Notes: a model not told the origin generated them from the sequence alone. DNA of 44,371 bases from an uncultured Gammaproteobacteria bacterium (GCA_964559375.1 CAZLGE010000001.1:27492-71862), one strand, 5' to 3'; positions 7,090 to 44,085 are shown, counted from the stretch's first letter. Program-made: numbers and translations.

Positions 7090-7177
7090 ATTTATTTGCA
7101 ACATTATTAATTATAATAATATGTTGAGTGATAATTTTTTTTCAAAGTTCATTAACAAAAAAGAGAAGGAGAAAAAA

Positions 7178-7654
7178 ATGAACAATAAACCAAGCAAAGA
7201 AGAGGCCAAACAGGAATTAATTGAAAAATTTGGCATGGATAATACTTGGAGTTTTCAATGGGCTTTACGAAGAGGAGAGATTGAATTAGCTGAAAATTGG
7301 TTAAACTATATTATCGACAATAAAGAAAATTTTCCGCAATATGAAGGGAATTGGGATGAATGGTTAAAAGATCGCCAAGAAAATATCAGCACCTATAAAG
7401 AACTTAAAGCCAATGGGACTCTAGAAAAAACCGAAACTAAAACCATAAAATCGGTTAGCGAGGAGGGATTAAGAAGATTTGGAATAACCGACACAAAGGA
7501 TTTTAGACGATGCTTACAGGAGGGTAAAGTTGATAGCGCCCAATCCTGGTTTGAATATGTGCAAGAGAATATTATATATTTTACTCAATATTCAACAAAA
7601 AAATGGCTTTCGGACCGCCAAAAAGAATTAGCTGATGCTAAAAATAAAGGATGA
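7178..7654 (+). CDS. hypothetical protein made of two ~55-aa internal repeats (low-GC orphan)
   Basis: I prefer the ATG at 7178 (after GAAGGAG) over the track start at 7052. The repeats are FGMDNTWSFQWALRRGEIELAENWLNYIIDNKENFPQY..WDEWLKDRQ and FGITDTKDFRRCLQEGKVDSAQSWFEYVQENIIYFTQY..KKWLSDRQ. I recognise no family. Confidence 0.6.
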   Translation: MNNKPSKEEAKQELIEKFGMDNTWSFQWALRRGEIELAENWLNYIIDNKENFPQYEGNWDEWLKDRQENISTYKELKANGTLEKTETKTIKSVSEEGLRRFGITDTKDFRRCLQEGKVDSAQSWFEYVQENIIYFTQYSTKKWLSDRQKELADAKNKG

Positions 7655-7713: not shown

Positions 7714-8670
7714 TTAGAACTCTCGTCCTTCATGCACCTTACGGTGGATATCGCGGAGCTGCTTATTAGTGACGTGAGTATAGATCTGGGTAGTAGCGAT
7801 ATTACTGTGTCCCAAAAATTCCTGTACGGTGCGGAGGTCAACGCCTTGATTAAGAAGGTCGGTAGCAAAGGAGTGGCGCAGCGTGTGAGGCGTGGCCATG
7901 ACCGGTAAGCCGGCTATCTTCACATATTTTTTAACGATATCCTCGATACTCTTTACGGTCAAGCGGCGCGAGTCCTGTGTCTTAGTTGCACCCCGACGGT
8001 AATTAATGAACAGGGCATCATCCATATCTTTACGCTCCTTAAGGTAAGCGCGCAAAGCGGTGATTGCCCGGCCAGAAAAATATACTGTCCGGAGTTTACT
8101 TCCTTTACCAATTATCGCCGTCTCGATGTCTTTAGTGTCATCCTTGATTCGTAACTGGTCCCGATCTAGGGCGGCTAGTTCAGCGACTCGCAGACCGGTC
8201 GAAAATAGGGTTTCCAGAAGTGACCGATCACGCAGGCCGATGATCGTTCCCTGAGAAGGAGCGCTAAGCAGCCGTGACAACTGCTCGAGCTTTAAAAATT
8301 TTATTTCTTTATCAGCTTTATCTTTAGCTAATTTTACTTTTGAAGGCGACAGGGAAGTGATGTCTTTTTCGACGAAAAACTCCAGAAGAGAGCGCAGCGC
8401 TATCAGGTAGTAGTTCTGCGTAGTCTTTTTAAGGGTTTTATTTGTCCTTTTATCCGCATGGCGCGACAGATATACTTTATACTGCCAGATGAGCTCCGGA
8501 GTCAGGGAAGAGGGTTGGAGGGCCTCCCGACCAGTGTCCTTGAGCCAGCCGAAGAACTTCCGGAGGAAGCGAGTATAATTTTCCTGGGTCTTCGAGGAGA
8601 GACCCTTCTCGATCTCCGAATAATCCAGAAAGTCGGTCAGGTATTTTATTATCGGCTTATGCTTATCCAT
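7714..8670 (-). CDS. tyrosine site-specific recombinase, XerC/XerD family
   Basis: 318 aa. N-terminal SAM-like core-binding domain. C-terminal catalytic motifs: ..GLRVAELAAL.., HTLRHSFATDLL, LGHSNIATTQIYTHV (R..HxxR..Y). Confidence 0.9.
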   Translation of the reverse strand: MDKHKPIIKYLTDFLDYSEIEKGLSSKTQENYTRFLRKFFGWLKDTGREALQPSSLTPELIWQYKVYLSRHADKRTNKTLKKTTQNYYLIALRSLLEFFVEKDITSLSPSKVKLAKDKADKEIKFLKLEQLSRLLSAPSQGTIIGLRDRSLLETLFSTGLRVAELAALDRDQLRIKDDTKDIETAIIGKGSKLRTVYFSGRAITALRAYLKERKDMDDALFINYRRGATKTQDSRRLTVKSIEDIVKKYVKIAGLPVMATPHTLRHSFATDLLNQGVDLRTVQEFLGHSNIATTQIYTHVTNKQLRDIHRKVHEGREF

Positions 8671-9828: not shown

Positions 9829-9939
9829 ATTACTTCCCTCCTGATATTAGCCTGAGGTCTGGCTAGCAATTCATAAACAATCTTCGGCTTGAATATCTGC
9901 TTAAAAATTTTTTTCATGTTTATTGTTAACGGCGATATA

Positions 9940-13054: not shown

Positions 13055-14323
13055 TTATTTCTTCTTACCGGAAACGGGCTTGAGTATCCTTAAATCCGCG
13101 GGCAGATATTTATGCAGTGCCCTAGGAATGATCACCGAACCGTCCGGTTGCTGGTTCTGTTCAAGGATTGCCGGGAAAAGCCGACTAGTCGCCAGACCAG
13201 AGGCATTAAGTGTATGCACAAATCCGTTCTGTCCGGTCGCCGGATTCTTGAAGCGGACTTGTCCGCGACGGGCCTGGTAATCGCCGGCGTTAGAGATACT
13301 GCTTACCTCCTTATAGATATCCATACTGGGTAGAAAGATTTCCAAATCATAGGTCTTAGTCATCGCGGCGCTGCAGTCACCAGCCGCCAGCTTAGAGATC
13401 TGAAAGTGCAGTCCCAGACCTTCAACTAGCTGTTTGGCATTGTCCACGAGTTCATCAAACATCTGGCCGGAATCTTCCGGGTGACAGAAGATAAACATCT
13501 CTATCTTGTTAAATTGATGGCCGCGGACCATTCCCCGCTCTTCTTGGCGATAACTGCCGGCTTCGCGCCGAAAGCAGCTCGAATAGGCGAAATATTTAAG
13601 AGGCAGATCACCGCCGGCTAGTATTTCATCACGATGATAATTACCGAGCATCATTTCGCTGGTCGCATTAAGGCAAAGCTTATCCTGTGTCCAATATAGA
13701 TCGTCGCGAAACTTAGGCAAATGCCCAGAGGTATAAGCGGAATCCTCGCTGAGCAAGAAAGGAGGAATAAGAAAGCGGTAGCCGTTTTGGGTATGGAAAT
13801 CTACAAAATACGAGAGGAGCGCCCATTCCAGGAGCGCGCCTGCGCCGGTATAGCACCAGAAGCCGCTGCCGGACATCTTAACCGCTCTTTCATAGTCGAT
13901 CAGCTTTAGGCTGGTTGCCAGCTCGACGTGGTCCCGAAATTTAAAAGAAAATTCCGGCTTCCGGCCGAAAGTGTAGATAGCTTCATTGTTTTCTTTGCCG
14001 CCGGAAACGACATCGGAAGCAGGCAGGTTGGGGAGTTCCGCCACAAGTAGCTGTAACTCTTCTTCCTTAGCCGATAATTCTTTTTCTAGTGCCCGGATAT
14101 GATCCCCTTCTTCCTTAAGCCGGGCAATGACTTCCGGAGTGGGCTTGGTCTTGGAATTCTTGTTCCGTTGGGCCTTTTTTTCCTCCATGGTCGCAATCAG
14201 CCGTCGTCTGTCGTCGTCAAGGGTGATAATCTTTTCCAGATCAAGATCAGCTGGGTCCATGCGCTTTAAAAGCGCGCTCCGGACTAGCTCCGTCTCTTCT
14301 CTGATTAATTTAAGGTCTAGCAT
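13055..14323 (-). CDS. serS: seryl-tRNA synthetase
   Basis: 422 aa. N-terminal coiled-coil arm. Class II motifs FRREAGSYRQEERGMVRGHQFNKIEMF and GLATSRL. Confidence 0.93.
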   Translation of the reverse strand: MLDLKLIREETELVRSALLKRMDPADLDLEKIITLDDDRRRLIATMEEKKAQRNKNSKTKPTPEVIARLKEEGDHIRALEKELSAKEEELQLLVAELPNLPASDVVSGGKENNEAIYTFGRKPEFSFKFRDHVELATSLKLIDYERAVKMSGSGFWCYTGAGALLEWALLSYFVDFHTQNGYRFLIPPFLLSEDSAYTSGHLPKFRDDLYWTQDKLCLNATSEMMLGNYHRDEILAGGDLPLKYFAYSSCFRREAGSYRQEERGMVRGHQFNKIEMFIFCHPEDSGQMFDELVDNAKQLVEGLGLHFQISKLAAGDCSAAMTKTYDLEIFLPSMDIYKEVSSISNAGDYQARRGQVRFKNPATGQNGFVHTLNASGLATSRLFPAILEQNQQPDGSVIIPRALHKYLPADLRILKPVSGKKK

Positions 14324-14329
14324 ATATTT

Positions 14330-15946
14330 CTAATTTACGATTTCACCGCCAAAATTTTTGAGTAGGTCTGACATCAATCCGGTATTACTCTGTCCGGTTG
14401 CCTGAGAGTCGCTGGCTCCTGACGCTACCTCGGCCACCTCCTTTTCAACGTTCTTGACCGGCAGAGTCTCGTCGAGCGCGGAAGTGAAGCTGAGTCCAGC
14501 GCCGTACACCTCACCGAGCACCTTGTCGACAATAACTTTGATACTACTATCATTGATACGGTCCTGGTGGAACTTATATTTAAAAACAAGAAGTAGGCGG
14601 CCATTTTGCAAACCGCGGGGTTCACAATTTTGCAGAACGAAAGATAAAGAATGGTTATATTTCTTTATCTTTACTAGAAGTTCGGGCCAGCGGGCCAGGA
14701 TCTCCGCAACAGTCAGCTTGAGAACAGGCGCTGACGGCGGGTTCTGGGCGGTTTTTATGTCTGTTTGTGTAGAAGCAGGTTTCAGGGGGCCTTTAGCCGG
14801 TCTCTGCGGATAATCCGCATTATCCCGGATAAACTGAGCCGCGGGCTTGTCGGCGCTAAAACAAAGTTCGCCGATTGCTATTTCCAGGGGTAACTGCGGA
14901 ATAAGCGGGCTCTTATTATCAGCCGCGACTTCTAAAAAACGACGGGTTAGACCGATTGTTTGCTCCAAGCCCAAACTTCCCGCTACCGGTGTGAGACGTT
15001 TTTCTAATTCTTCGCCCCAGTCCAGACCCAGGCTATTTTCGAGTTCTGGGCTCAGCTTGCTCAGCATAATTTTACGAAGAAGGCTAACCACCTCGGCCAC
15101 GAAAAGCTTGATATTCACGCCACTGTCGGCCAGGTTGTTAACTAGAGCCACCGCTTTTGCTGCATCTTTGCGGCTCAGATGATCGAGAAGATTAACCGCC
15201 TCCTGGCTGCTGTAATGCGGCATGACCAGTTCGGCCTGCTCGGCTGTGACTTCTTTATCTCCGAGCGAAAAGATTTGCCCCAGTAGGCTTTCCGCATCAC
15301 GCAGATGGCCTCCCGAGCGGCGGGCCACCGCCTCCAGTATCCCATCCGCGACGGAAACCTTTTCCTGCTTGGCGATGTAACTGAGCTTCCTCACTATATC
15401 CGCGACGCTTACCCGCCGGAAATCGAAGCGCTCGCAGCGGGAAACGATCGTGGCCGGCACTTTTTGTATTTCAGTGGTACAGAGGACAAAAATCACGTAG
15501 GCGGGCGGCTCTTCGATAATCTTAAGCAGGGCGTTAAAAGCGGAAATGGAAAGCATGTGGACTTCGTCGATGATAAAGACCTTATACTTGGCGCTAGTCG
15601 GCGCTAACCGGGAAAAAGCGATGATGTTATCGCGGACATTATCCACGCCGGTATTGGACGCGGCATCGATCTCGATTACTTCCAGATTGCGGCCGGCGAC
15701 TATACTTTGGCAACTCGGGCAGCTATCGCAAGGTTCGAAATCTGTCGCCGCCCGTTTTTCGCAATTAACAGCCTTCGCCAGGACCCGCGCCATAGTTGTC
15801 TTGCCGACGGCCCGTGGGCCACAAAACAGATAAGCACCGGCCGGCCGGCCGGCCACCACCTCGTTTTGCAAAGTTATCTTGATGTGATTCTGGCCGAGAA
15901 CTTCGGAAAATTTCTGCGGACGATACTCACGATACAGAGTTGACAT
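14330..15946 (-). CDS. dnaX: DNA polymerase III subunit gamma/tau
   Basis: 538 aa. Walker A GPRAVGKTT, a Cys4 zinc module (C..C.SCPSC), DEVHMLS, and the SRC motif (VSRCERF). Confidence 0.93.
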   Translation of the reverse strand: MSTLYREYRPQKFSEVLGQNHIKITLQNEVVAGRPAGAYLFCGPRAVGKTTMARVLAKAVNCEKRAATDFEPCDSCPSCQSIVAGRNLEVIEIDAASNTGVDNVRDNIIAFSRLAPTSAKYKVFIIDEVHMLSISAFNALLKIIEEPPAYVIFVLCTTEIQKVPATIVSRCERFDFRRVSVADIVRKLSYIAKQEKVSVADGILEAVARRSGGHLRDAESLLGQIFSLGDKEVTAEQAELVMPHYSSQEAVNLLDHLSRKDAAKAVALVNNLADSGVNIKLFVAEVVSLLRKIMLSKLSPELENSLGLDWGEELEKRLTPVAGSLGLEQTIGLTRRFLEVAADNKSPLIPQLPLEIAIGELCFSADKPAAQFIRDNADYPQRPAKGPLKPASTQTDIKTAQNPPSAPVLKLTVAEILARWPELLVKIKKYNHSLSFVLQNCEPRGLQNGRLLLVFKYKFHQDRINDSSIKVIVDKVLGEVYGAGLSFTSALDETLPVKNVEKEVAEVASGASDSQATGQSNTGLMSDLLKNFGGEIVN

Positions 15947-15975
15947 AGGAATAAATTCTTAGTATTTAACAGGGG

Positions 15976-18456
15976 TTATTTCACGATACTGGTGCGGCGT
16001 CTAATTTCCGCTTCGACTAAACGACTATTTTGTCCATACTTTAAACGACTTAGGGCTCTTATTTTTGAAGCGATTTCCGGTCTTTTTACCCCTAATAAAG
16101 GCCAAATTGTCTTTAAAGTAAAGGGTCGGGCCGCGCTATTATCAATCAGGAGTTTTAAGCAAGCCATTCCCTTATCGATGTTTATTAAATCATATTCATT
16201 AAAAACCGGCGCGAATTCTTTGACTAAAAATTCCGCGTCCTCCGAACCAATTTTAAAACTAATCATTGTTCCGACGTTACCGAAAACTGCGTCTTTAATT
16301 TCCGTATTATTATTTTTAGCCAGCTGACCGATATATTGATGGGCGATTACTAAATTAAGAGCGTATTTTCGCGCTTCCGATAAAATCTGACAAATTGAAT
16401 TTGTCGTAAAGTTTTGAAACTCATCGATATATAAATAAAAATCTTTACGTTCCGCGTTCGGAACATCGGTGCGCGATAAAGCAGCCATTAAAATTTTTCC
16501 GACTAAAATCATGCCGAGTAAATAAGCGTTCATTTCGCCGACGACGCCTTTCGGCAAATCAATTAATAATATTTTTTGATTATCCATGATGTCGCGCAGC
16601 TTGAAAGCACTTTCTTGCTGACCGATAATCGGCCGCATCATATCGTTTGAAATAAAGGAAGTAAGTTTCGAAGTGATATAAGGTACGATATTGGCAAGCG
16701 CCGCTTCGCCACCCGCTTTCTCCGCTTCCTTGCGCCAAAAATCGACGACCGGCTGATTTTTACAACGACTTAGTTTATACTTTCTAAAATCCTCATCGGC
16801 GAGAACCTTAGGAATTTCCATTAACGTTGAACCCGATTCCGGATCATCCATAATTAAAAGCATGGCATTGCGCATGTATTGTTCGAACATCGGTCCGCCC
16901 GTCGCTTTTAAATCATATAACTTATCAAAAATTCCGATCATCTCGTTAATCACAAAACTTTTTTGTTCCGGATATTTCGGATCGTATTCAAGCAAGTTTA
17001 AGGCCATCGGTCGCTCTAAATCGCCTGGTGAAAAAACAACCACATCCTCGCCGCGGTCCGGCGGGATGCGATCTAAAATATCGGCAATTAAATCACCATG
17101 CGGATCAATGACGCAAACACCTTCCCCGTTTTGAATATCTTGCACCGCCATATTGCAAAGCAATACCGATTTACCGACCCCGGATTTACCGACAATATAG
17201 GTATGACGACGACGATCAGAGCGCCCGATACGTATTTCTCTTTTCACCCCTCGATAAACGTTTTCGCCAAGCGAAATTCCTTCTTCCGGCAAAGTTGCCG
17301 GCGCGGGCGCTATTTTTGAAGTTAACCAAACTATGTTTGGCGTTTCTGTCCCCTTCAACGGCAAATGATATAAACTCGTCAATTCTTCCGTGCCTAATAA
17401 AAAACTAAGATTTTCTTCAAAACGGCGGTAAATAAAATCATCAATAATTTTATGTTGATTTCCCTTATAAATGCGGGAAAAATTATTGCCGTAATGATAA
17501 TTATTAAATTCGTTATAAACGTTTGAGAAATTCTCAAGATAATAATTCGCTTTTTCTTTTGTCTCGGCGCAAACAATTAAACGTAAATTTACTTCTAAAC
17601 CGGCTTTAAGATTTTTCTCTTCAATCATCTTAAGCATGTCCTGTTCAACCTGCGTTAAGTATTTCATCGTCTGCATTCCCGGCTGAGACGCATTCTGCGA
17701 GGCCGGTTTAGGCGGAAACACTGCATAGTATGTGGCCCACAAAGGATTACTTGCTCTTAGACCATGCCAGACTGAACCACAGCGGTTGATCATTACGGAA
17801 GTTCTTTTGCTCGCTTTGTGCCAACTCGGCGGGGCACTCCGCACGACATATTGAATAACGATACTTTCCTGCCGATCTAATTTTGATAAAACATTAATAA
17901 TCGAGTTAAGCGGATCGACCAACATTTTTTCATAAGTCTTTAAGGATAAAACAAATTTATTTTTCGTTTTTAAATAAGCGGCCGAAACATAATTGGTCGG
18001 CGTAAAAGAATTATAGTCTAAAACTTCCTCTAAAACCGCATCGGGATAATGGGCGGTAATTTGTTTTTCTAAATATAAAGCATGACGCTCCGGGGCAACC
18101 GCATAAAAATAAATTTTGCCTTGTTGGGCGACAATTTCAAATGAAAAATGATCATCGCGACCCAAAAGCCAACTCATAAAACCACCCTGAACACGTAAAC
18201 CGCCGATGGAAGCAAAAATAGTTTCGCCCTTGGCGATTTCTTCTTTTAGTTGTTGCGGGGTTGTTTCCTTATTTTCATCTTTCGGTTTTTCTTTCGGCAA
18301 GCGAATTAAAAAAAGACGGTGTTTAAAATGATTTCGCCCGAGACCGAAAATTTTAATAACTTTTCGCGCGAGCAGTAAAAGAATATACAAAAAAAGAAGC
18401 GCGCCCGCCATCTGCAGAATCAAAACCGGATTTAGATAACTCGTTGGATCTTGCAT
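15976..18456 (-). CDS. membrane-anchored VirD4/TraD/TraG-like (type IV coupling protein family) P-loop ATPase with an unknown ~400-aa N-terminal region
   Basis: 826 aa. N-terminal TM helix, Walker A IVGKSGVGKSVLL, Walker B FYLYIDEFQNF, then LVIAHQYIGQL. This pattern matches the T4CP/FtsK-HerA superfamily. GC is markedly lower than the flanks. Confidence 0.75.
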   Translation of the reverse strand: MQDPTSYLNPVLILQMAGALLFLYILLLLARKVIKIFGLGRNHFKHRLFLIRLPKEKPKDENKETTPQQLKEEIAKGETIFASIGGLRVQGGFMSWLLGRDDHFSFEIVAQQGKIYFYAVAPERHALYLEKQITAHYPDAVLEEVLDYNSFTPTNYVSAAYLKTKNKFVLSLKTYEKMLVDPLNSIINVLSKLDRQESIVIQYVVRSAPPSWHKASKRTSVMINRCGSVWHGLRASNPLWATYYAVFPPKPASQNASQPGMQTMKYLTQVEQDMLKMIEEKNLKAGLEVNLRLIVCAETKEKANYYLENFSNVYNEFNNYHYGNNFSRIYKGNQHKIIDDFIYRRFEENLSFLLGTEELTSLYHLPLKGTETPNIVWLTSKIAPAPATLPEEGISLGENVYRGVKREIRIGRSDRRRHTYIVGKSGVGKSVLLCNMAVQDIQNGEGVCVIDPHGDLIADILDRIPPDRGEDVVVFSPGDLERPMALNLLEYDPKYPEQKSFVINEMIGIFDKLYDLKATGGPMFEQYMRNAMLLIMDDPESGSTLMEIPKVLADEDFRKYKLSRCKNQPVVDFWRKEAEKAGGEAALANIVPYITSKLTSFISNDMMRPIIGQQESAFKLRDIMDNQKILLIDLPKGVVGEMNAYLLGMILVGKILMAALSRTDVPNAERKDFYLYIDEFQNFTTNSICQILSEARKYALNLVIAHQYIGQLAKNNNTEIKDAVFGNVGTMISFKIGSEDAEFLVKEFAPVFNEYDLINIDKGMACLKLLIDNSAARPFTLKTIWPLLGVKRPEIASKIRALSRLKYGQNSRLVEAEIRRRTSIVK

Positions 18457-18459
18457 ATT

Positions 18460-18933
18460 TTATCTGTCTTTTAAACGAATAATTTTATCAGCTTTTAATT
18501 TTACCTCTTGTTCCAAGAAAAATTTATTTATCCCCGTAATTAGAGAGAGCCATTTTCTAATCAGAGAAACAATTTTATTAATTTTTAATTTTGTTTGACT
18601 CAATAACTCATTAATTTTTAAAACTGTTTCTTCTCCCTTTTTCTTAAATATTTTCTGTTCTTCTGGTTTCATCTTTAAAAAAACTTCATTTAAGCCTTCG
18701 GCTAAAATGTTATCGATTTCCTGCGCACGTTTTTGTTGATAATAATCACCGGCCGGCACGGAAGTTGGCTTCGCAATATTAATAATCTCCGCCGCCGATT
18801 TAAGCTTCGCTTTTTTCTCATGAGTCAAGGAAACATTTTCCGTTTTATTTTCGGGCGTTTTTATTTTTTCGCTCGTCGGAATCGGAATCGGTATTTTTTC
18901 TAAAATCGTCTTCTCTAATTTTTGTTCAGCCAT
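18460..18933 (-). CDS. hypothetical Lys/Glu-rich protein, probable coiled coil
   Basis: I prefer the ATG at 18933 (MAEQKLEKT...), because the track start at 18972 would overlap the ferredoxin gene. 157 aa, very low GC, 3 nt upstream of the ATPase gene. Confidence 0.55.
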   Translation of the reverse strand: MAEQKLEKTILEKIPIPIPTSEKIKTPENKTENVSLTHEKKAKLKSAAEIINIAKPTSVPAGDYYQQKRAQEIDNILAEGLNEVFLKMKPEEQKIFKKKGEETVLKINELLSQTKLKINKIVSLIRKWLSLITGINKFFLEQEVKLKADKIIRLKDR

Positions 18934-18941
18934 AATATTTA

Positions 18942-19115
18942 TTATTTGACCAAAATTGCTCCCACCGGGCAATTTTCCGCCGCACTTTTAGCGCAATCGC
19001 TAACTTCTGTTTTAATAACTTCGGCTTTGCCGTCGAGATTCAACTGGAAGCTGTCCGGACATAATCCGGCACACAGTCCGCAACCTGCGCAGAGACTCTT
19101 ATCTATCCTAACCAT
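18942..19115 (-). CDS. small 4Fe-4S ferredoxin (57 aa), absent from the ORF track
   Basis: My translation: MVRIDKSLCAGCGLCAGLCPDSFQLNLDGKAEVIKTEVSDCAKSAAENCPVGAILVK. CxxCxxCxxxCP plus a distal C...CP is a classic single-cluster ferredoxin layout. Confidence 0.75.
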   Translation of the reverse strand: MVRIDKSLCAGCGLCAGLCPDSFQLNLDGKAEVIKTEVSDCAKSAAENCPVGAILVK

Positions 19116-19232
19116 AAAGACTGATTAATGTTTAAAACTATAATTATTATAGCATAATTTCCAAAAAATAAAACTATTATTTATCTCTAAAATTAGTAAG
19201 AAAACAAATCTCAGTTGTTATTATGGCCCTAT

Positions 19233-19596: not shown

Positions 19597-19615
19597 AACC
19601 CCTACTTCATTACAA

Positions 19616-19645
19616 AAAACACCGTTATAAAAACGGTGTTTTTTA
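19616..19645. terminator. bidirectional intrinsic terminator between rpmA and pyrG
   Basis: AAAACACCGTT-ATAAA-AACGGTGTTTT followed by extra Ts. Confidence 0.8.
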
Positions 19646-19666
19646 TACAGTTTGAATTACTGAACA

Positions 19667-38452: not shown

Positions 38453-39124
38453 CTAATCAATCAGGGTTATGAACAGATCTTCGGCGGGCGGATCGGGTAG
38501 ATGGCTGGCATCATTGATATAATTTATCTTGATGTAGCCGTCGCGATCTATGACCAGCTTAGTTATCGAGGACTGGAATATCTCGAGCGACAGGAAGCCG
38601 AGCACGTCGGAATTAAGGATGCCGGTGAGGAGAGACTTGATAAAATTACCGTGTGTAAATAGAGCGAGGCGCCGGCCGCGATTGGCGCGCCAGATAGCGG
38701 CTAGAGTCCGACGGGCGGCAGTCTGCATCCGATCCAACTTCTTATCCAGCTCGGCATGGGCACGGAATTTCGCTCGCCGGCTGCTTTCCGTCATATTAAA
38801 ATATTTGATCCGGTGCCAATTACTCCAATTGATCTCGTCTAGACGCAGTTCGACATTGAGCGGCTGACCGACTTTTTCCAGATAGGCGGCAGCGGTCTCC
38901 TGCGAACGCGGCAGGCCACTAGTGTAAACCTTGTCGATGTCCATTTTCAGAAGCCGGGCCGTCAGGTAGCGCCGTTGTTTCTGGCCGGTCAAAGACAGCG
39001 GCATATTGTACTCGCCCAGAGTTTTTTCCCGACGATAATCGGGGTGACAGTGGCGGATTAGATAAATTTCGGTATATGGGCGACGTAGCGGCGGCTTAAG
39101 CTTGCTGTAGGGGTTTTTATACAT
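38453..39124 (-). CDS. histidine phosphatase superfamily (phosphoglycerate-mutase-like) protein
   Basis: 223 aa. IYLIRHCHPDY (an RHG-type motif) and a distal FTHGNF. Confidence 0.7.
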   Translation of the reverse strand: MYKNPYSKLKPPLRRPYTEIYLIRHCHPDYRREKTLGEYNMPLSLTGQKQRRYLTARLLKMDIDKVYTSGLPRSQETAAAYLEKVGQPLNVELRLDEINWSNWHRIKYFNMTESSRRAKFRAHAELDKKLDRMQTAARRTLAAIWRANRGRRLALFTHGNFIKSLLTGILNSDVLGFLSLEIFQSSITKLVIDRDGYIKINYINDASHLPDPPAEDLFITLID

Positions 39125-39137
39125 AGGCTACAAACGA

Positions 39138-39728
39138 TTATAAATTTTCCTCCACGACGGACCAATTAATTAGATTCTTTAAGACGGCGTCAGCAAAATC
39201 TCCGCGACGATTCTGATAGTCGAGGTAATAAGAATGTTCCCAGACATCGAGCGCGAAAATCGGCTTGAGGCCGTGAGCGACGGAATTATCGGCATTAGAC
39301 ATTTTCAAGATGCGGAGTGCTCCGCCCTCTTTAACGAGCCAGACCCAGCCGCTCCCGAATAAACCCCCAGCCGCAATCTTAAATTCTTCATAAAAATTGT
39401 CGAGCGAACCAAAACTAGCGGCAATGGCGGTAACAACAGCTTCCCCCGGTTCCGTCCGATTGGTAATGGGCTGCAAGCTCCGCCAGAAAAAGCTATGATT
39501 GAAGTGTTGGCCAGCGTTATTAAAAATTGCGCTCTTATCAGGGTCAGACGTCGTCTTGAGGATAATCTCCTCGAGCGTCAGCCCCTCGAGTTCCGTGCCC
39601 CTGATCAACTTATTCAGGTTATCGACGTAGGCTTGGTGATGCTTGCCGTGGTGAAGCTCCATCGTCCGGGCCGAAATGAACGGCTCGAGAGCAGCGGGAC
39701 CATACGGCAGAGCGGGTAGAGTGAACAT
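39138..39728 (-). CDS. Fe/Mn-family superoxide dismutase
   Basis: 196 aa; LHHGKHHQAYV and DVWEHSYYLDYQNRR. Confidence 0.93.
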   Translation of the reverse strand: MFTLPALPYGPAALEPFISARTMELHHGKHHQAYVDNLNKLIRGTELEGLTLEEIILKTTSDPDKSAIFNNAGQHFNHSFFWRSLQPITNRTEPGEAVVTAIAASFGSLDNFYEEFKIAAGGLFGSGWVWLVKEGGALRILKMSNADNSVAHGLKPIFALDVWEHSYYLDYQNRRGDFADAVLKNLINWSVVEENL

Positions 39729-39765
39729 ATATTTGATGAAGATTATTTTTTAAAGCGACGATATT

Positions 39766-39774
39766 ATTATAGCA
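39766..39774 (-). promoter_or_regulatory. extended -10 (TGCTATAAT) for the SOD gene
   Basis: Minus strand TGCTATAAT, about 37 nt upstream of the ATG. Confidence 0.45.
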
Positions 39775-39810
39775 AAAAAATCCGATATAATCACTATTTT
39801 TTACTACGCA

Positions 39811-39840
39811 AAAGGGCCGGCAGCTGTTCGCTGCCGGCCC
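39811..39840 (-). terminator. intrinsic terminator after csp
   Basis: Minus strand GGGCCGGCAGC-GAACA-GCUGCCGGCCC followed by UUUUGCG. Confidence 0.8.
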
Positions 39841-39858
39841 TTAGTGTCTCGTGCGATA

Positions 39859-40056
39859 TTAAGCGCGCTTGACGTTGACCGCGTTCGGTCCCTTGGGGGA
39901 CATCTCGGAATCGAAGGTAACGGCGTCACCTTCGCGGAGTTCGTTGAATTGGACATCAACCAAAGCCTTGCTGTGGAAGAATAGATCCTTTTCCTCGCCC
40001 TCGACGCTGATGAAACCGAAGCCTCTGTCGGTCAAAGTTTTGATGGTACCAGTCAT
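39859..40056 (-). CDS. cspA: cold-shock protein (CspA family)
   Basis: 65 aa; MTGTIKTLTDRGFGFI...DLFFH. Confidence 0.94.
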   Translation of the reverse strand: MTGTIKTLTDRGFGFISVEGEEKDLFFHSKALVDVQFNELREGDAVTFDSEMSPKGPNAVNVKRA

Positions 40057-40146
40057 GGACTCTAAAACTTAGGGATTAATAAATGGCAATCTTGTATGAC
40101 TAATTTAAAGTCGACTACTTTGCTTAATCATTCTTGCTTAATGAAC

Positions 40147-40175
40147 AGTCTAGCATATTAATCCCAGGAAGTCAA
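40147..40175 (-). promoter_or_regulatory. sigma70-type promoter for csp, leaving a ~85-nt 5' UTR
   Basis: Minus strand TTGACT (40175-40170), 17 nt, TAGACT (40152-40147). Confidence 0.5.
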
Positions 40176-40199
40176 GCCCCATTCCAGCTTTCCCTTCCC

Positions 40200-40228
40200 T
40201 TGACACATTTTCTAAAAAAAGCTATATT
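40200..40228 (+). promoter_or_regulatory. sigma70-type promoter, divergent from csp
   Basis: TTGACA (40200-40205), 17 nt, TATATT (40223-40228). Confidence 0.55.
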
Positions 40229-40330
40229 ATAATGTTCTTTAAAATTCGGGAAGTAATACCAGCCGAGCCAGTTAAGCTAATTAACTAGAAGCTCGGACTT
40301 GGTCGCCCGGGCTGCTTAACATATAAAAAT

Positions 40331-40483
40331 ATGTTACAGACAATCAATGGGTTCATCGGTATCATAATATTGATACTGATACTCAAATGGGCCTTACCTT
40401 CCGAAGCCGCCGACTTAGCCGGACAGATCCTGATCAAGATCCTAAGCTTGATCCGTGATTTGCTCCTGCAAGTCAACCCCTGA
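40331..40483 (+). CDS. possible 50-aa small membrane protein (or part of a non-coding transcript)
   Basis: Below the track cutoff. MLQTINGFIGIIILILILKWALPSEAADLAGQILIKILSLIRDLLLQVNP has one TM helix plus an amphipathic tail. Bracketed by the promoter at 40200 and the terminator at 40488. No SD. Confidence 0.35.
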   Translation: MLQTINGFIGIIILILILKWALPSEAADLAGQILIKILSLIRDLLLQVNP

Positions 40484-40487
40484 ATTT

Positions 40488-40517
40488 AAAAGGTGTTATT
40501 TTTATAACACCTTTTTT
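40488..40517. terminator. bidirectional intrinsic terminator
   Basis: AAAAGGTGTTAT-TTTT-ATAACACCTTTT followed by TT. Serves the plus-strand small unit and the minus-strand GerMN gene. Confidence 0.8.
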
Positions 40518-40558
40518 CTTTCTTAAAATATGGCGACTAGCACCGCTTTCCTTATAAT

Positions 40559-41485
40559 TTAGGGTTGGAGTATGTCCTCGCTCCGACCATCGATCGAAAT
40601 GATGACTTCGCTGACGGTTGGAAACTGGAGCAGAGTTTCTCTGATCTGGGCGCCTATCGCCGCCGCGCGGCAGGAACCGCCAGGCTGGGCCTCGAGAGCA
40701 GGATTAAAATCAACCTTGGCTACCCCGTTCTCGATGGTCAGACTCTGGATGCGGACATCCTCGTTCAAGCTCGTAGAATATCCCTGATCCCTCTCGACCG
40801 TTGTCAATCCCTTAATCAATTCTTCAAGTGCGGCCCGGGCGACAGCGCTGGTAGCCGGTACTTGCCGCTCAATCGGGAACACAACATTACAGGACACAGC
40901 GGGATCGAGGATAATGTTACTAAAATAAGCTTTGACCGTCATCAAACTAGGTATCGCCTGCAGCCGGAGCGGGATCCGGATCTCGTCGGCGTTCTGCGGC
41001 AATCCCGAGGGGTTATCCTTCTCCAAAACGAGTGTCGCCTCCATCTCACTGGCCGCCTGATAAGTTAGAATTGCTCGGAAGGGGACGAAATTCTCGGTCA
41101 TCCAGTCGCCCTGAGCAGTGGCAATAGCGGTCGCTAGCAACTGGCCCGCTGAATCATAAAGACGAACCGGAAAATCCGCTTCAAAGTACCAATTGCCCCG
41201 CGCTTCGCCTTCAATAATGATCGGACTGCCGACCGATTGATTTGGAGCCGGGACATTCACTCTGATTAGGTCGCCCTTATCAACCTCAACCGGACCACCT
41301 GGTTCTTCCCCGCTGTCCTGAGGACAAGACTCTAACGGCTGGTTTCCGGCGGGATTACCGTGACGGATCCACACGCCGTCCCGGCAAACCCAAGCATCCT
41401 CGGCTGAGAAGAAACGGACCGTGGAAATAATGGCCGCTATCACGACTATAGCCGCCAAGATCGAAAGTAATGTTTTGTTGGACAT
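40559..41485 (-). CDS. membrane-anchored Gmad2 Ig-like + GerMN domain protein
   Basis: 308 aa. N-terminal TM helix. SPIIIEGEARGNWYFEADFPVRLYD resembles a Gmad2-type Ig-like domain. The C-terminal half resembles GerMN (VKAYFSN...AVARAALEELIKG). Confidence 0.65.
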   Translation of the reverse strand: MSNKTLLSILAAIVVIAAIISTVRFFSAEDAWVCRDGVWIRHGNPAGNQPLESCPQDSGEEPGGPVEVDKGDLIRVNVPAPNQSVGSPIIIEGEARGNWYFEADFPVRLYDSAGQLLATAIATAQGDWMTENFVPFRAILTYQAASEMEATLVLEKDNPSGLPQNADEIRIPLRLQAIPSLMTVKAYFSNIILDPAVSCNVVFPIERQVPATSAVARAALEELIKGLTTVERDQGYSTSLNEDVRIQSLTIENGVAKVDFNPALEAQPGGSCRAAAIGAQIRETLLQFPTVSEVIISIDGRSEDILQP

Positions 41486-41489
41486 ATAT

Positions 41490-41495
41490 ATTATA
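41490..41495 (-). promoter_or_regulatory. TATAAT 4 nt upstream of the GerMN ATG (possible leaderless mRNA)
   Basis: Minus strand CAATATAATATATATG. Confidence 0.3.
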
Positions 41496-41575
41496 TTGCT
41501 GGGCCGGATAATATATTTCCGGCTCAGGAGATAAATCCGTCCGATTGTAAGTATAGATGAGTACGCCGATGTTCT

Positions 41576-42115
41576 TCATATCGATGGCCTTCTAGCTACG
41601 CTCAGCAGAAAAATCATGAGCAGAAAAGCGCTAAGAGCCATAATCGGGATAGTCACGTAATTAAATTCGGTCACATACTGGGCCAGGCAGCTGACGCCGC
41701 TACCGCTAATCGTACAAGCGGCTAGAGCAGACCGACCATAGTATAAGTAGTTATGATAAAGAGAAAGCAGCGCGCCGATAATCAGAAGGGCCAGCCCATA
41801 ATCCAAGACCGAACGATCTTTCTTCATAAGCGACATGGCCAAGAGGACGACAAGCGGATACATGGCGATCCGTTGGTACCAACAAAGATCGCAGGGCGGA
41901 TAACCAGCTACTTGAGAATAAAAAAGACTACCTAAGGTCGCCGCAAGAGCAACCAGGAAGGCTAAAAACGGACCACGGCGCCACAAGAAACCGCGGAAGC
42001 GATTGCCGCGGTCACGTCGAACGGCTAAAAAATAAATCAAGCCACCAACCAAAAAGATCTGGGCGGCGACCGTCATTATTGAAAGTATTTTGCTTACCAG
42101 CTCAATCATATCCAT
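41576..42115 (-). CDS. dsbB: DsbB/BdbC-family disulfide bond formation protein
   Basis: 179 aa with four TM helices. CDLCWYQRIAMYP (first Cys pair) and ACTISGSGVSC (second pair). Confidence 0.85.
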   Translation of the reverse strand: MDMIELVSKILSIMTVAAQIFLVGGLIYFLAVRRDRGNRFRGFLWRRGPFLAFLVALAATLGSLFYSQVAGYPPCDLCWYQRIAMYPLVVLLAMSLMKKDRSVLDYGLALLIIGALLSLYHNYLYYGRSALAACTISGSGVSCLAQYVTEFNYVTIPIMALSAFLLMIFLLSVARRPSI

Positions 42116-42121
42116 ATCAGG

Positions 42122-42529
42122 TTATTTAGGAAGTGGGCAGCCGGTCTTAGCAGCCAGCTCTTCTAGGGACAGCTTTCCTAAGACACGACTACCGTTGGCA
42201 AACGTCCAGGTCGGATAGCCGGTGATCTCGTTCTCGGTGCAGATCGGAAGCTGACCGCGGCCATCGGGAGTGGAGCATTCCACGTAGGGTGCCTCACTGA
42301 GAGCCGAACCGAATAGGTCCTTCTGATCTTGACAATGCGCACACCAGAACGTGCCATAAAATACCGCTCCCTCGTCTTTCAGACACTGAGCGAATCCGAC
42401 CAGTCGCCCGCCGTCAACAGCGGGACGGGTACTCCATTGTCCGTAGACCAAGAGAGCGAAAGCTAAAACCAGGACAGCGACAACCCCGTAAACAGCGGCT
42501 TTTTTAGACTTATCTAACTTATTTCCCAT
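42122..42529 (-). CDS. membrane-anchored thioredoxin-fold protein of the type fused to bacterial/plant VKOR homologs
   Basis: 135 aa. N-terminal TM helix. FYGTFWCAHCQDQKDLFG...PYVECS...ITGYPTW closely recalls the Trx-like domain of cyanobacterial VKOR / plant LTO1 (from memory). Confidence 0.75.
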   Translation of the reverse strand: MGNKLDKSKKAAVYGVVAVLVLAFALLVYGQWSTRPAVDGGRLVGFAQCLKDEGAVFYGTFWCAHCQDQKDLFGSALSEAPYVECSTPDGRGQLPICTENEITGYPTWTFANGSRVLGKLSLEELAAKTGCPLPK

Positions 42530-42546
42530 ATGTAAATGTTTATTGA

Positions 42547-42564
42547 TTATACGAATCAGTATAA
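42547..42564. promoter_or_regulatory. 18-bp inverted repeat overlapping the putative -10 of the trx-dsbB unit (operator candidate)
   Basis: TTATAC-GAATCA-GTATAA. On the minus strand it contains TATAAT. Confidence 0.3.
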
Positions 42565-42633
42565 CAAAAGAATTTTTTTCTGTCTTCCTTTTTTACTCGG
42601 CCGCCGGCTTCGGTTTATCTTGCTCCTGCGCTA

Positions 42634-42660
42634 AAATAGAGCCTTAATTCGGCTCTATTT
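42634..42660 (-). terminator. terminator-like hairpin after the Nramp-like gene
   Basis: AAATAGAGCC-(7 nt)-GGCTCTATTT, a 10-bp stem. The U-tract is partly inside the stem. Confidence 0.55.
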
Positions 42661-42693
42661 ATATGTCACCGTGGTCCGTTTTTACCGCCCGAA

Positions 42694-44085
42694 TTAACGC
42701 AACAGCTGATCCCAAAAAACCACACCGCTGAAAAAAGCGAAGAAGATAATAATGAAATAGAGGACGGCCCGGCGCCAAGGACGGGGCCAAAATGGCTTCT
42801 CAAGCGCCCGACGGTTAAGTATCGTTACCAGTACGACATGAACCAGCATGGCAAAAGCGTTGATGAGGGCGCCCAGGACGATCAGGGTCTTCGGCTCATA
42901 GATATTAAGAAGAAAAAGGATAACCCCGAAGGCGATCTGCGACCAGACAAATATATAATAAATTCGAGAAAGATTAATCTTGCCCGCCTTATCGCCGCGC
43001 AATTTCTCAATGGCGGCGTTTTCGGCCATGATACGACTAGTAGAGTCCATGATGCCCAGCTGAGTTTGAAAGAGCATCACGCCGACAACGACTAGGAAAA
43101 GTAAACCAATGAACGGATGGAGTAATCCGCCGATGGCAGCTCCTTCAGTAATGACAAAGTTTATGCCGCTGGCATTTCCGGGGTGGCCGAAGGTCGTGTT
43201 ATAAGCTAAGAACATAAGGAGCAGCATAGATAGACTGCCGATCAGCCAAAAAACCAAGAGATGCTCCAAGTTGATGGCGCGCCACCATTTTTGGAAGCGT
43301 CTGATACTCCGCGCATCAACCGTAAACGACTCGCCCGCCAGCTTCACTTCCTGGTGCCTGCTGCCGCGCGCAAAAAGGCCGGCAATCTTCTGGGAATATT
43401 TGCCCATACCATAACCTTTCTCCTTGACATAGATAGACTGCGTCAGGTTAAGATTGCCGCCCGCTCCGGAGTAGGCGAAAGCGGCCATGAAGGTAGCAAG
43501 AGCCATGCCAGGTGCCAGGAACCAGAACCCCTCGCCGCGGCCGATAAGACCGTTAGTTAGTGCCACCCAACTTTCCGGCGAACTGGTTACGATCGCCAAA
43601 ACAAAAATGAGCGGAACGCCGATAAGTATCACCGTCCGCGTGAGACCTTCCATCAGAGAATAAATCGTCTTCCCGATCGTCAAAATTAACCCGATCAGGA
43701 GAAGGAGGCCGATTGCCAACCACTTGAAACTAGCTAGCCCCAAAACGGACGCTAATACCTGGGCGGAGGCGGCAATAATGCCGGGTAGACCGAAACCGAT
43801 AAAAGTTGAAAGAATAAACCAATAGGGAGCGAAGCGCAAAAATCTGGCCAGGCCGACAAAAACGCTCTCGCCGCGGACGAGCGCATAACGCTCAATTTCC
43901 ATGTTGATGAAGAATTGGAAGGTGATGCCGGCCAGCGCTCCCCAAGCCAAGCCCAGCCCAAAATTAGCGGTCAGGTAGGGCCAAAGTATGACCTCACCCG
44001 ATCCCAGGCCAAGGGCTAAGATGATAAAACTCGGACCGAGTAGACGCCTAACTTTAGGCGCGGCGGGGAATTCTTTATTTACCAT
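42694..44085 (-). CDS. Nramp-like (LeuT-fold) metal-ion transporter, divergent
   Basis: 463 aa with about 11 TM helices. Overall layout is Nramp/MntH-like, but the usual DPGN motif is replaced by GSGE (LGLGSGEVILWPY), so substrate is uncertain. Confidence 0.55.
   Translation of the reverse strand: MVNKEFPAAPKVRRLLGPSFIILALGLGSGEVILWPYLTANFGLGLAWGALAGITFQFFINMEIERYALVRGESVFVGLARFLRFAPYWFILSTFIGFGLPGIIAASAQVLASVLGLASFKWLAIGLLLLIGLILTIGKTIYSLMEGLTRTVILIGVPLIFVLAIVTSSPESWVALTNGLIGRGEGFWFLAPGMALATFMAAFAYSGAGGNLNLTQSIYVKEKGYGMGKYSQKIAGLFARGSRHQEVKLAGESFTVDARSIRRFQKWWRAINLEHLLVFWLIGSLSMLLLMFLAYNTTFGHPGNASGINFVITEGAAIGGLLHPFIGLLFLVVVGVMLFQTQLGIMDSTSRIMAENAAIEKLRGDKAGKINLSRIYYIFVWSQIAFGVILFLLNIYEPKTLIVLGALINAFAMLVHVVLVTILNRRALEKPFWPRPWRRAVLYFIIIFFAFFSGVVFWDQLLR

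Follow-up and report, generated by a model that had tools for sequence, protein, structure and literature searches.

A conserved gene pair for a coupling-protein-like ATPase and a small partner, located upstream of dnaX in Patescibacteria, with a tract replaced in place from a lower-GC relative

The DNA analysed here is a single stretch of 44,371 nt (the window; all coordinates and strands below are positions in the whole of it). Its segment 15976-18933 holds two adjacent genes of low GC content, one for an 826-aa ATPase that resembles type IV coupling proteins (T4CPs) and the other for a small protein of 157 aa. An earlier note, made from the sequence alone, had taken the pair for an island inserted next to dnaX. 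We found that the ATPase and its 157-aa partner constitute an ancestral chromosomal two-gene module upstream of dnaX, which in a Falkowbacteria-like group is preceded by a ferredoxin gene. We also found that ~3 kb of sequence, beginning halfway through the ferredoxin gene and ending at the ATPase stop codon, has been replaced in situ by the orthologous segment of a lower-GC relative. The locus comprises the following genes and features.

18942-19115, minus strand: 4Fe-4S ferredoxin gene, 57 aa, first gene of the co-directional run (Fer4_13 and Fer4_15 on the identical protein)
18460-18933, minus strand: small partner gene, 157 aa from ATG or 170 aa from an upstream TTG (open reading frame (ORF) call; GC content at third codon positions (GC3) 0.31)
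15976-18456, minus strand: ATPase gene, DUF8128 plus T4CP-type motor, 826 aa, whole coding sequence (ORF call, Pfam T4CP domains, precomputed PF26449; GC3 0.385)
18361-18429, minus strand: transmembrane helix of the ATPase, ~residues 10-32, followed by a basic stretch (hydropathy and predicted helix)
17302-18324, minus strand: DUF8128 N-terminal alpha/beta domain, ~residues 45-385 (precomputed Pfam; structure model and Foldseek)
16087-17244, minus strand: T4CP-type P-loop motor, ~residues 405-790 (Pfam, NCBIfam, PDB sequence match)
17167-17190, minus strand: Walker A motif GKSGVGKS, residues 423-430, in the motor
16408-16437, minus strand: Walker B motif YLYIDEFQNF, residues 674-683, in the motor
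Residues 705-712 of the ATPase: AHQ motif AHQYIGQL, in the motor
14330-15946, minus strand: dnaX (clamp-loader tau/gamma subunit), conserved downstream neighbour (Pfam families in syntenic loci)
13055-14323, minus strand: serS, recipient-like, after a 6-nt spacer from dnaX
~15947-19025, no strand assigned: replaced tract, ~3.05-3.1 kb with approximate ends (3' half of the ferredoxin gene, small gene and ATPase gene)
19137-19164, minus strand: candidate operon promoter upstream of the ferredoxin gene, sigma-70-like (TTGGAA, 16-nt spacer, TATAGT; consensus scan only)

A two-gene module upstream of dnaX

The genes of the run lie close together, with spacers of 8 nt between the ferredoxin and small genes, 3 nt between the small and ATPase genes, 29 nt between the ATPase gene and dnaX, and 6 nt between dnaX and serS. 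ORF positions, lengths and spacers agree with the earlier description. A scan of the ferredoxin-small, small-ATPase and ATPase-dnaX spacers found no terminator-like sites in them. Co-transcription with dnaX-serS, proposed earlier from the spacing, is compatible with so tight a layout, and the module and dnaX-serS are probably transcribed together.

When the co-occurrence of the pair and its neighbourhood were surveyed across genomes, as had been proposed, the pair proved to be kept, with dnaX downstream, from the Falkowbacteria-like group to Kerfeld- and Uhrbacteria. More than 4658 relatives of the ATPase were found in databases; the best 120 are full-length and 68–100% identical, and every named one among these 120 comes from Patescibacteria. 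Species-representative genomes with relatives number at least 568, and 80 loci were kept for the analysis of synteny. The small ORF lies directly upstream of the ATPase gene in nearly all of the 80 loci, and the ferredoxin gene, the divergent rpmA gene and dnaX-serS-GHL15 are in place in ~45 or more of them. For relatives that are 90%, 87% and 72% identical, gene tables of the surroundings give the order ferredoxin, small protein, ATPase, dnaX, serS, GHL15. This ferredoxin-first order recurs in dozens of Falkowbacteria-like species, and the small-protein/ATPase pair with dnaX downstream is also present in Kerfeld-, Uhr- and Magasanikbacteria. We take the candidate phyla that carry the pair to belong to the Patescibacteria class ABY1. 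In distant members (a representative with 32% identity in the N-terminal domain, Kerfeldbacteria, Uhrbacteria) the small ORF still abuts the ATPase gene, and dnaX lies on the same strand 1.5–5.6 kb downstream. The upstream ORFs of three such members match a hidden Markov model (HMM) of the small protein (E = 8e–38, 8e–27 and 3e–21).

The small protein is a dedicated, co-inherited partner of the ATPase. Its N-terminus is variable, of low complexity and, as stated before, K/E/P-rich; the C-terminal ~90 aa make up a conserved helical domain with an FFLEQE motif at its end. The protein is rich in Lys, Ile and Glu and has no predicted transmembrane segment. Sequence searches of Pfam, NCBIfam, PADLOC and the PDB returned no relatives of it, and no FFLEQE partner lies upstream of the plasmid or phage ATPase homologues examined.

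The earlier remark that a coupling-protein-like ATPase stands here without a secretion apparatus holds for the window and beyond it. No type IV secretion system (T4SS) apparatus was found within 7–10 kb of the ATPase gene in ~90 relatives (gene tables and scans). Relaxase, VirB4, pilin, T4SS and mobile-element genes are likewise absent from the window by Pfam scan and gene tables, the last four genes (38453-44085) being left out of the Pfam scan. Conjugation proteins of Bacillus and haloarchaea, used as tblastn queries on related loci totalling 1.59 Mb, gave no matches, at a low sensitivity for divergent Patescibacteria T4SS proteins. Around the tract only short imperfect repeats at chance level were found, and neither tRNA genes nor Rfam families were detected in the window. 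The earlier statement that the window lacks relaxase, VirB4, pilin, integrase and repeat boundaries thus stands except for the integrase. A tyrosine recombinase (Pfam Phage_integrase) is encoded at 7714-8670, ~7 kb off; it is a syntenic Xer-like chromosomal gene that is present in relatives.

Database titles do not follow this picture. Many records with the same Patescibacteria syntenic block (L009, L011, L016 and others) are titled "uncultured Gammaproteobacteria bacterium", and single ones are titled Bacillota, Planctomycetota, Nanoarchaeia or Saccharimonadales, so that record titles look unreliable for taxonomy.

In-place replacement of the tract

Total GC content is 0.401 in the ATPase gene and 0.321 in the small ORF, against 0.521 in dnaX, 0.500 in serS, 0.509 in pyrG and 0.483 in the whole window. 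The break is sharper at third codon positions: GC3 equals 0.385 for the ATPase gene (z = –5.0) and 0.310 for the small ORF (z = –6.9), versus 0.578 (standard deviation (sd) 0.039) for the 35 other genes of the window. Tetranucleotide distance from the window is maximal at 16001-19000 (z = 4.7). A computed profile, the check suggested in the earlier note, thus contains the discontinuity. The low GC content described there is real, and so is its downstream edge, which coincides with the ATPase-dnaX spacer; the shift in total GC is smaller than the hand counts had given. The upstream edge, placed before at the 8-nt spacer to the ferredoxin gene, falls inside that gene, where GC3 is 0.57 in the first half (19026-19115) and 0.36 in the second (18942-19025). 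Because the shift is greatest at third codon, that is synonymous, positions, amino-acid bias is ruled out as its cause. The earlier note had named a conserved core pair at this position, with a composition explained by amino-acid bias, as grounds for giving up its reading; the conserved position was found and speaks against that reading, and the composition comes from the replacement described below.

Low GC is not a property of the gene in general. The difference between GC3 of the ATPase gene and GC3 of its flanks averages +0.010 in 59 other species (sd 0.024, range –0.041 to +0.098), whereas it is –0.17 to –0.19 in this lineage. The protein sequences point to the same tract. We predicted ATPase identity by regression on dnaX, GHL15 or pyrG identity over ~2000 genome pairs. 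The ATPase of the window is 0.87–0.90 identical to those of the low-GC loci L001, L005 and L008, where ~0.72 is expected from the flanks (z = +4.2 to +5.8); these residuals are the largest among the ~2000 pairs. Conversely, it is only 0.69 identical to the ATPase of L027, the nearest genome by flanking genes (z = –2.5 to –4.6). Neighbour-joining trees (100 bootstraps) conflict accordingly: the ATPase is sister to L005 within the L001/L005/L008 clade (100/100 bootstraps), and the concatenated dnaX, GHL15 and pyrG are sister to L027 (100/100).

Sliding-window identity delimits the tract. The entire ATPase, the entire small protein and ferredoxin residues 31–57 are donor-like; ferredoxin residues 1–30 are not, and the ribosomal protein L27 and DnaX are recipient-like, DnaX residues 1–40 already showing an identity of 0.90 with L027 and of 0.75 with the donor clade. 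A breakpoint inside the conserved ferredoxin gene is the signature of replacement rather than insertion. The low-GC source also accounts for the foreign codon composition (GC3 0.31–0.39) within a genome of GC3 ~0.58. Homologous recombination is the most likely route.

By these comparisons the donor belongs to the clade of loci L001, L005 and L008. There is a limit to how closely it can be placed: even the nearest sampled genes of this clade have a DNA identity of only ~80%, and four-fold sites (0.40–0.47) approach saturation. Hence, the true donor is unsampled and the event is not very recent. The same mosaic is carried by two independent assemblies (JGI and ENA, from different projects) with 98.9% and 99.4% nucleotide identity and single-nucleotide polymorphisms (SNPs) across it, which rules out an assembly chimera. 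SNP density between strains is 0–4.8 per kb in the tract, not clearly below the 2.4 per kb of pyrG; this density and the near-saturated four-fold sites do not support a very recent transfer or sweep. The replacement predates the strain divergence seen in these assemblies.

Two other explanations of the composition break were considered. One is that of a foreign low-GC island, or the remnant of an integrative and conjugative element (ICE), which brought new genes in between the ferredoxin gene and dnaX; both forms had been put forward in the earlier note. The compositional and tetranucleotide discontinuity is real, the tract is of foreign origin and the ATPase family is typical of conjugative elements. 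However, in dozens of species and across several ABY1 candidate phyla this pair stands at the identical place upstream of dnaX. The pair is found at this site in essentially all related loci and so lacks the variable presence of an island or ICE. Composition is flank-like in the 59 other species, one breakpoint lies within a conserved gene, and neither flanking repeats nor relaxase or other conjugation genes accompany the tract, so that we regard an island as very improbable. The second explanation sees in the dip the outcome of codon-usage or amino-acid selection on the pair, or else a chimeric assembly. In its favour, the ATPase is unusually conserved (75% mean column identity), and the Lys-, Ile- and Glu-rich partner lowers GC at codon positions 1 and 2. 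This explanation is hardly credible given that the shift is largest at third codon positions, is absent from the 59 other species, coincides with a strongly supported conflict between trees, and recurs as the same mosaic, with SNPs spread across it, in two independent assemblies. What looked like a novel island is a core Patescibacteria pair with a clean, well-bounded orthologous (xenologous) replacement, and composition alone was insufficient for calling an island. The case implies that divergent lineages of the candidate phyla radiation exchange core genes by recombination.

Further irregularities of this kind were noticed in the same gene neighbourhood. At the syntenic position serS exists in two deeply different forms, the window protein being 37–41% identical to one set of relatives and 63–76% to the other. 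The split (L001, L005, L008 and L012 versus L002, L019 and L027) does not track that of the neighbouring genes, which suggests, as far as protein identities go, orthologous displacement of serS within the clade too. The Xer-like recombinase at 7714-8670 is also bimodal across related loci (29–33% versus 66–89% identity to the window protein), in a grouping that differs from that of serS; L008, for example, has 74% for the recombinase and 38% for serS. Among L036, L056, L051, L021 and L013 there are other pairs in which ATPase identity is far above the prediction from dnaX, GHL15 and pyrG (for L036–L056, dnaX 0.56 and ATPase 0.81, z = 3.8). The cassette may therefore be exchanged recurrently between lineages.

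The ATPase, its relatives and its possible role

The earlier note had described a T4CP-type motor with three motifs behind one N-terminal transmembrane helix, and the motifs, the helix and matches to T4CP families were all recovered. The motor matches the Pfam families TrwB_AAD_bind (9.7e–8), T4SS-DNA_transf (2.7e–5) and TraG-D_C (8.8e–5) just above their gathering cut-offs, and also DUF87. Its best NCBIfam matches are TraD, VirD4 and TrbC models (SXT_TraD, 2e–13), far below the equivalog cut-offs, and the best sequence match among solved structures in the PDB is TrwB (3.6e–6). Mean column identity of the ATPase in an alignment of 64 homologues is the 75% given above, and none of the 64 departs from the core residues of the Walker A, Walker B and AHQ motifs. 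These matches place the protein in the T4CP (VirD4/TraD/TrwB) superfamily. The 19-residue Kyte-Doolittle hydropathy has its maximum (2.66) at residues 11–29, within a helix (residues 10–39) of the AlphaFold2 (AF2) model, and the bulk of the protein is predicted to be cytoplasmic by the positive-inside rule.

In the AF2 model built on the 64-sequence alignment, the N-terminal domain has a predicted local distance difference test score (pLDDT) of ~80–90, and for most of residues 475–826 in the motor the score is below 50. The poor model of the motor is probably due to its near-invariance in the alignment. The helical region 498–611 between Walker A and Walker B, a candidate for the all-alpha domain of T4CPs, also has low pLDDT. 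A second model, of the N-terminal domain alone, reached a pLDDT of 66.

The ~400 aa in which no motif had been recognised before correspond to the Pfam family DUF8128 (PF26449), which precomputed matches assign to P0001, the identical protein, and to every homologue listed. Our own Pfam scan of the N-terminal 400 aa gave no family, and the name comes from these precomputed annotations. DUF8128 is found in 1551 clusters at 50% identity, nearly always at the N-terminus of proteins of ~800–860 aa; no publication on "DUF8128" turned up in a literature search. When the N-terminal domain alone was compared with the PDB by Foldseek, all of the top 12 matches were TrwK/VirB4 of plasmid R388 (E 2e–5 to 4e–3, probability up to 1.0), with TM-scores normalised to query length of 0.33–0.39 and a root-mean-square deviation of ~10 Å; the significant matches of the full-length model are again only TrwK/VirB4 of R388. 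This model comparison suggests a fold like the N-terminal domain (NTD) of VirB4. The likeness to VirB4 extends to overall plan: TrwK also has ~800 aa, with an N-terminal alpha/beta domain and a C-terminal motor related to TrwB. In contrast, the VirB4 signature (AAA_10/CagE_TrbE_VirB) is absent among the Pfam matches of the ATPase, TIGR00929 reaches 19.9 bits where its cut-off is 643, and TM-scores stay at the low values given.

Homologues of the ATPase occur on mobile elements. A tblastn search found 347 plasmid records with relatives, mainly of Streptomyces, Bacillus, Staphylococcus, Clostridium, haloarchaea and Sulfolobus, at coverage of up to 87% of the query. The 885-aa protein WP_345805471.1 of a B. 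subtilis plasmid (NZ_CP154917) aligns with ATPase residues 44–786 (E = 4e–40, ~24% identity). Its gene lies immediately upstream of a Replic_Relax relaxase-like gene and is clustered with an AAA_10 VirB4 gene and annotated conjugal-transfer genes, which is the position of a coupling protein. The same plasmid thus has a separate bona fide VirB4 beside the ATPase homologue, a further difference between our ATPase and VirB4; BLASTP detected no significant similarity between the ATPase and this Bacillus VirB4. On a haloarchaeal plasmid (Haloterrigena pHTS138) the two domains are split between neighbouring genes, inside a cluster that also has pilin and conjugal-transfer genes. The plasmid DUF87/DUF8128 coupling ATPases match the ATPase of the window in size and domain order and are homologous over the full length, N-terminal domain included. 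However, they stand beside Replic_Relax, AAA_10 VirB4 and conjugal-transfer genes, whereas the Patescibacteria gene stands beside dnaX. Large Bacillus phages also encode homologues of ~825–845 aa (vB_BsuM-Goe26, L095 5830-8364; gp156 of phage G, L096 4983-7460), which align with residues 56–759 and so cover both the N-terminal domain and the motor. Among viral contigs one distant match, to the motor only, was found.

Canonical T4CPs usually have two transmembrane helices. The ATPase shares with TrwB of R388, the structural prototype, an N-terminal membrane anchor followed by a cytoplasmic P-loop motor of the FtsK/HerA superfamily. It differs in having one transmembrane helix, not two, in the 340-aa DUF8128 between anchor and motor, and in being chromosomal and core, not located beside relaxase or mating-pair-formation (MPF) genes. 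In sum of T4CP features, it has the P-loop signature with intact Walker motifs, the transmembrane anchor and homology to a coupling protein of a conjugation module; it lacks an accompanying relaxase and VirB4-containing MPF genes in the 44-kb window and within 7–10 kb in ~90 relatives.

The Patescibacteria themselves provide the closest known setting. A recent study describes their T4SS as related to the monoderm MPF-FATA class and mostly without relaxases (Quinonero-Coronel et al. 2025, PMC12102498). It counts 5,713 VirD4-like T4CP homologues over 2,918 Patescibacteria genomes, places just 148 of these homologues near virB4, and reports T4SS loci in ABY1, often with comF, recG and radA; a 2025 review restates these points (PMC12857230). 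The ATPase of the window is like these homologues in phylum, in being VirD4-like and in lying away from virB4, as they overwhelmingly do. The gene hence belongs to a known kind, that of the VirD4-like coupling ATPases of Patescibacteria, and is nothing categorically new: the earlier proposal of an unexplained or undescribed system gives way to the fact that VirD4-like T4CPs unlinked to virB4 were already reported to be widespread in the phylum. The DUF8128 domain, the small partner, the linkage to dnaX and the allele replacement are not described in the passages of PMC12102498 consulted.

Overall, we consider it likely that the locus holds a conserved T4CP-family pair, replaced in place, which would serve as a substrate-coupling motor for a T4SS encoded elsewhere. 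The ATPase would be anchored in the membrane by its single N-terminal transmembrane helix, with the VirB4-NTD-like domain and the intact VirD4/TrwB-type P-loop motor in the cytoplasm, and by analogy with TrwB/VirD4 it would form a membrane-associated hexamer. ATP hydrolysis would be coupled to the recruitment of a macromolecular substrate (DNA or protein), which the motor would pass on to the MPF-FATA-like type IV secretion channel of Patescibacteria, with its genes at another place in the genome. The small protein would be an adaptor or regulator bound to the ATPase. The identity of the ATPase, the conservation of the pair and the replacement are established by the results above; the hexamer, the substrate, the T4SS link and the role of the partner we infer.

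A number of observations weigh against this proposal. Most of the motor is poorly modelled, the likeness to the VirB4 NTD stays below a TM-score of 0.5, and neither the window nor the surroundings of the gene in the relatives examined contain T4SS genes. The Bacillus phages that carry the ATPase homologue have no T4SS, and the homologue of Goe26 follows recA, polA and a ligase gene, among replication and recombination genes. According to PMC12102498, relaxases are rarely found in Patescibacteria, Ca. Southlakia epibionticum can do without its t4cp homologue but not without other T4SS genes, and exaptation of t4cp is raised as a possibility. Several of these points favour the main rival explanation, a T4SS-independent, membrane-anchored DNA motor of the FtsK/HerA superfamily that acts in replication, segregation, uptake or export and is tied to dnaX. 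The same-strand dnaX downstream from Falkowbacteria to Kerfeld- and Uhrbacteria, the lack of nearby T4SS genes at any locus, the full architecture of the phage homologues with the Goe26 gene context, the dispensable saccharibacterial t4cp with its suggested exaptation (PMC12102498) and weak matches to CedD and HerA models all agree with it. On the other hand, the nearest cellular homologues with an informative context are coupling proteins in conjugation modules, beside a relaxase-like gene and VirB4, and all top family matches are T4CPs. T4CP genes often lie far from virB4, as PMC12102498 reports, the synteny with dnaX may be historical and not functional, and in phage G the homologue (gp156) follows gp155, which is annotated as VirB-like. 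We regard such a motor as possible, though doubtful. A role in anti-phage defence, as a MADS mad8/HerA-type ATPase, is suggested by a PADLOC mad8 match to the motor (2.3e–12) and weak matches of HerA models. The match is limited to the generic P-loop domain, further MADS or defence genes are missing next to the pair, PADLOC gave nothing for the partner, and the locus is fixed, core and syntenic among housekeeping neighbours (ferredoxin gene, dnaX, serS, pyrG), which makes this role highly unlikely.

Returning to the proposed coupling motor, its interest comes from the setting: the T4SS on which Patescibacteria rely is a repurposed conjugation-type system, and yet the genes for their VirD4-like ATPases are found apart from it. 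The small partner, the position next to dnaX in several candidate phyla and the VirB4-NTD-like domain bear on whether such ATPases serve the essential T4SS or have been co-opted for other DNA handling. A bolder combination is rather unlikely in our view: a T4SS-independent translocation module across ABY1-type phyla, tied both genetically and functionally to dnaX, whose N-terminal domain could be a true VirB4-NTD homologue and which takes part in a recurrent exchange of host-interaction components. If it were true, the module could, for example, transport or transfer DNA at the membrane of these ultrasmall epibionts. With a true VirB4-NTD homologue, the family would link VirB4 and VirD4 in evolution, and the allele replacement seen here, with the hints from other lineages, would represent the recurrent exchange of a host-interaction component.

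Other features of the window

The scanned remainder of the window is housekeeping in content (gltX, an M23 peptidase gene, nusG, rplK, rplA, gap, tsf, rpsB and others). One further gene has a composition as extreme as that of the partner gene: a 177-aa ORF at 7120-7653 (plus strand) with GC3 0.31 (z = –6.9) and no Pfam or PADLOC match. It sits between the M23 peptidase gene and the Xer-like recombinase gene; the gene call is shared by the sister assembly L003, and the corresponding gap is gene-free in L001 and L002. This ORF may be a second, independent foreign segment.

Gene content varies at two more places. Relatives have an alanine racemase gene between the genes for a 350-aa hypothetical and a 280-aa POTRA-like protein (L001 18520-19656, L002 18722-19822), where the window (9829-9939) and the sister assembly L003 have a mere 111-nt gap. 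Relatives also carry a GtrA-family gene and other small genes between pyrG and rpmA, which the window does not have. Between the convergent ends of rpmA (L27) and pyrG, at 19611-19647, lies a 16-nt inverted repeat with 94% complementarity and a 5-nt loop, which looks like a bidirectional terminator hairpin. Finally, a dip in GC content to 0.40 at 40001-40500 corresponds to an AT-rich intergenic stretch of ~500 nt (feature 39859-40558), in which no RNA family or tRNA was detected; it lies upstream of a 65-aa cold-shock-like ORF (39859-40056, minus strand).

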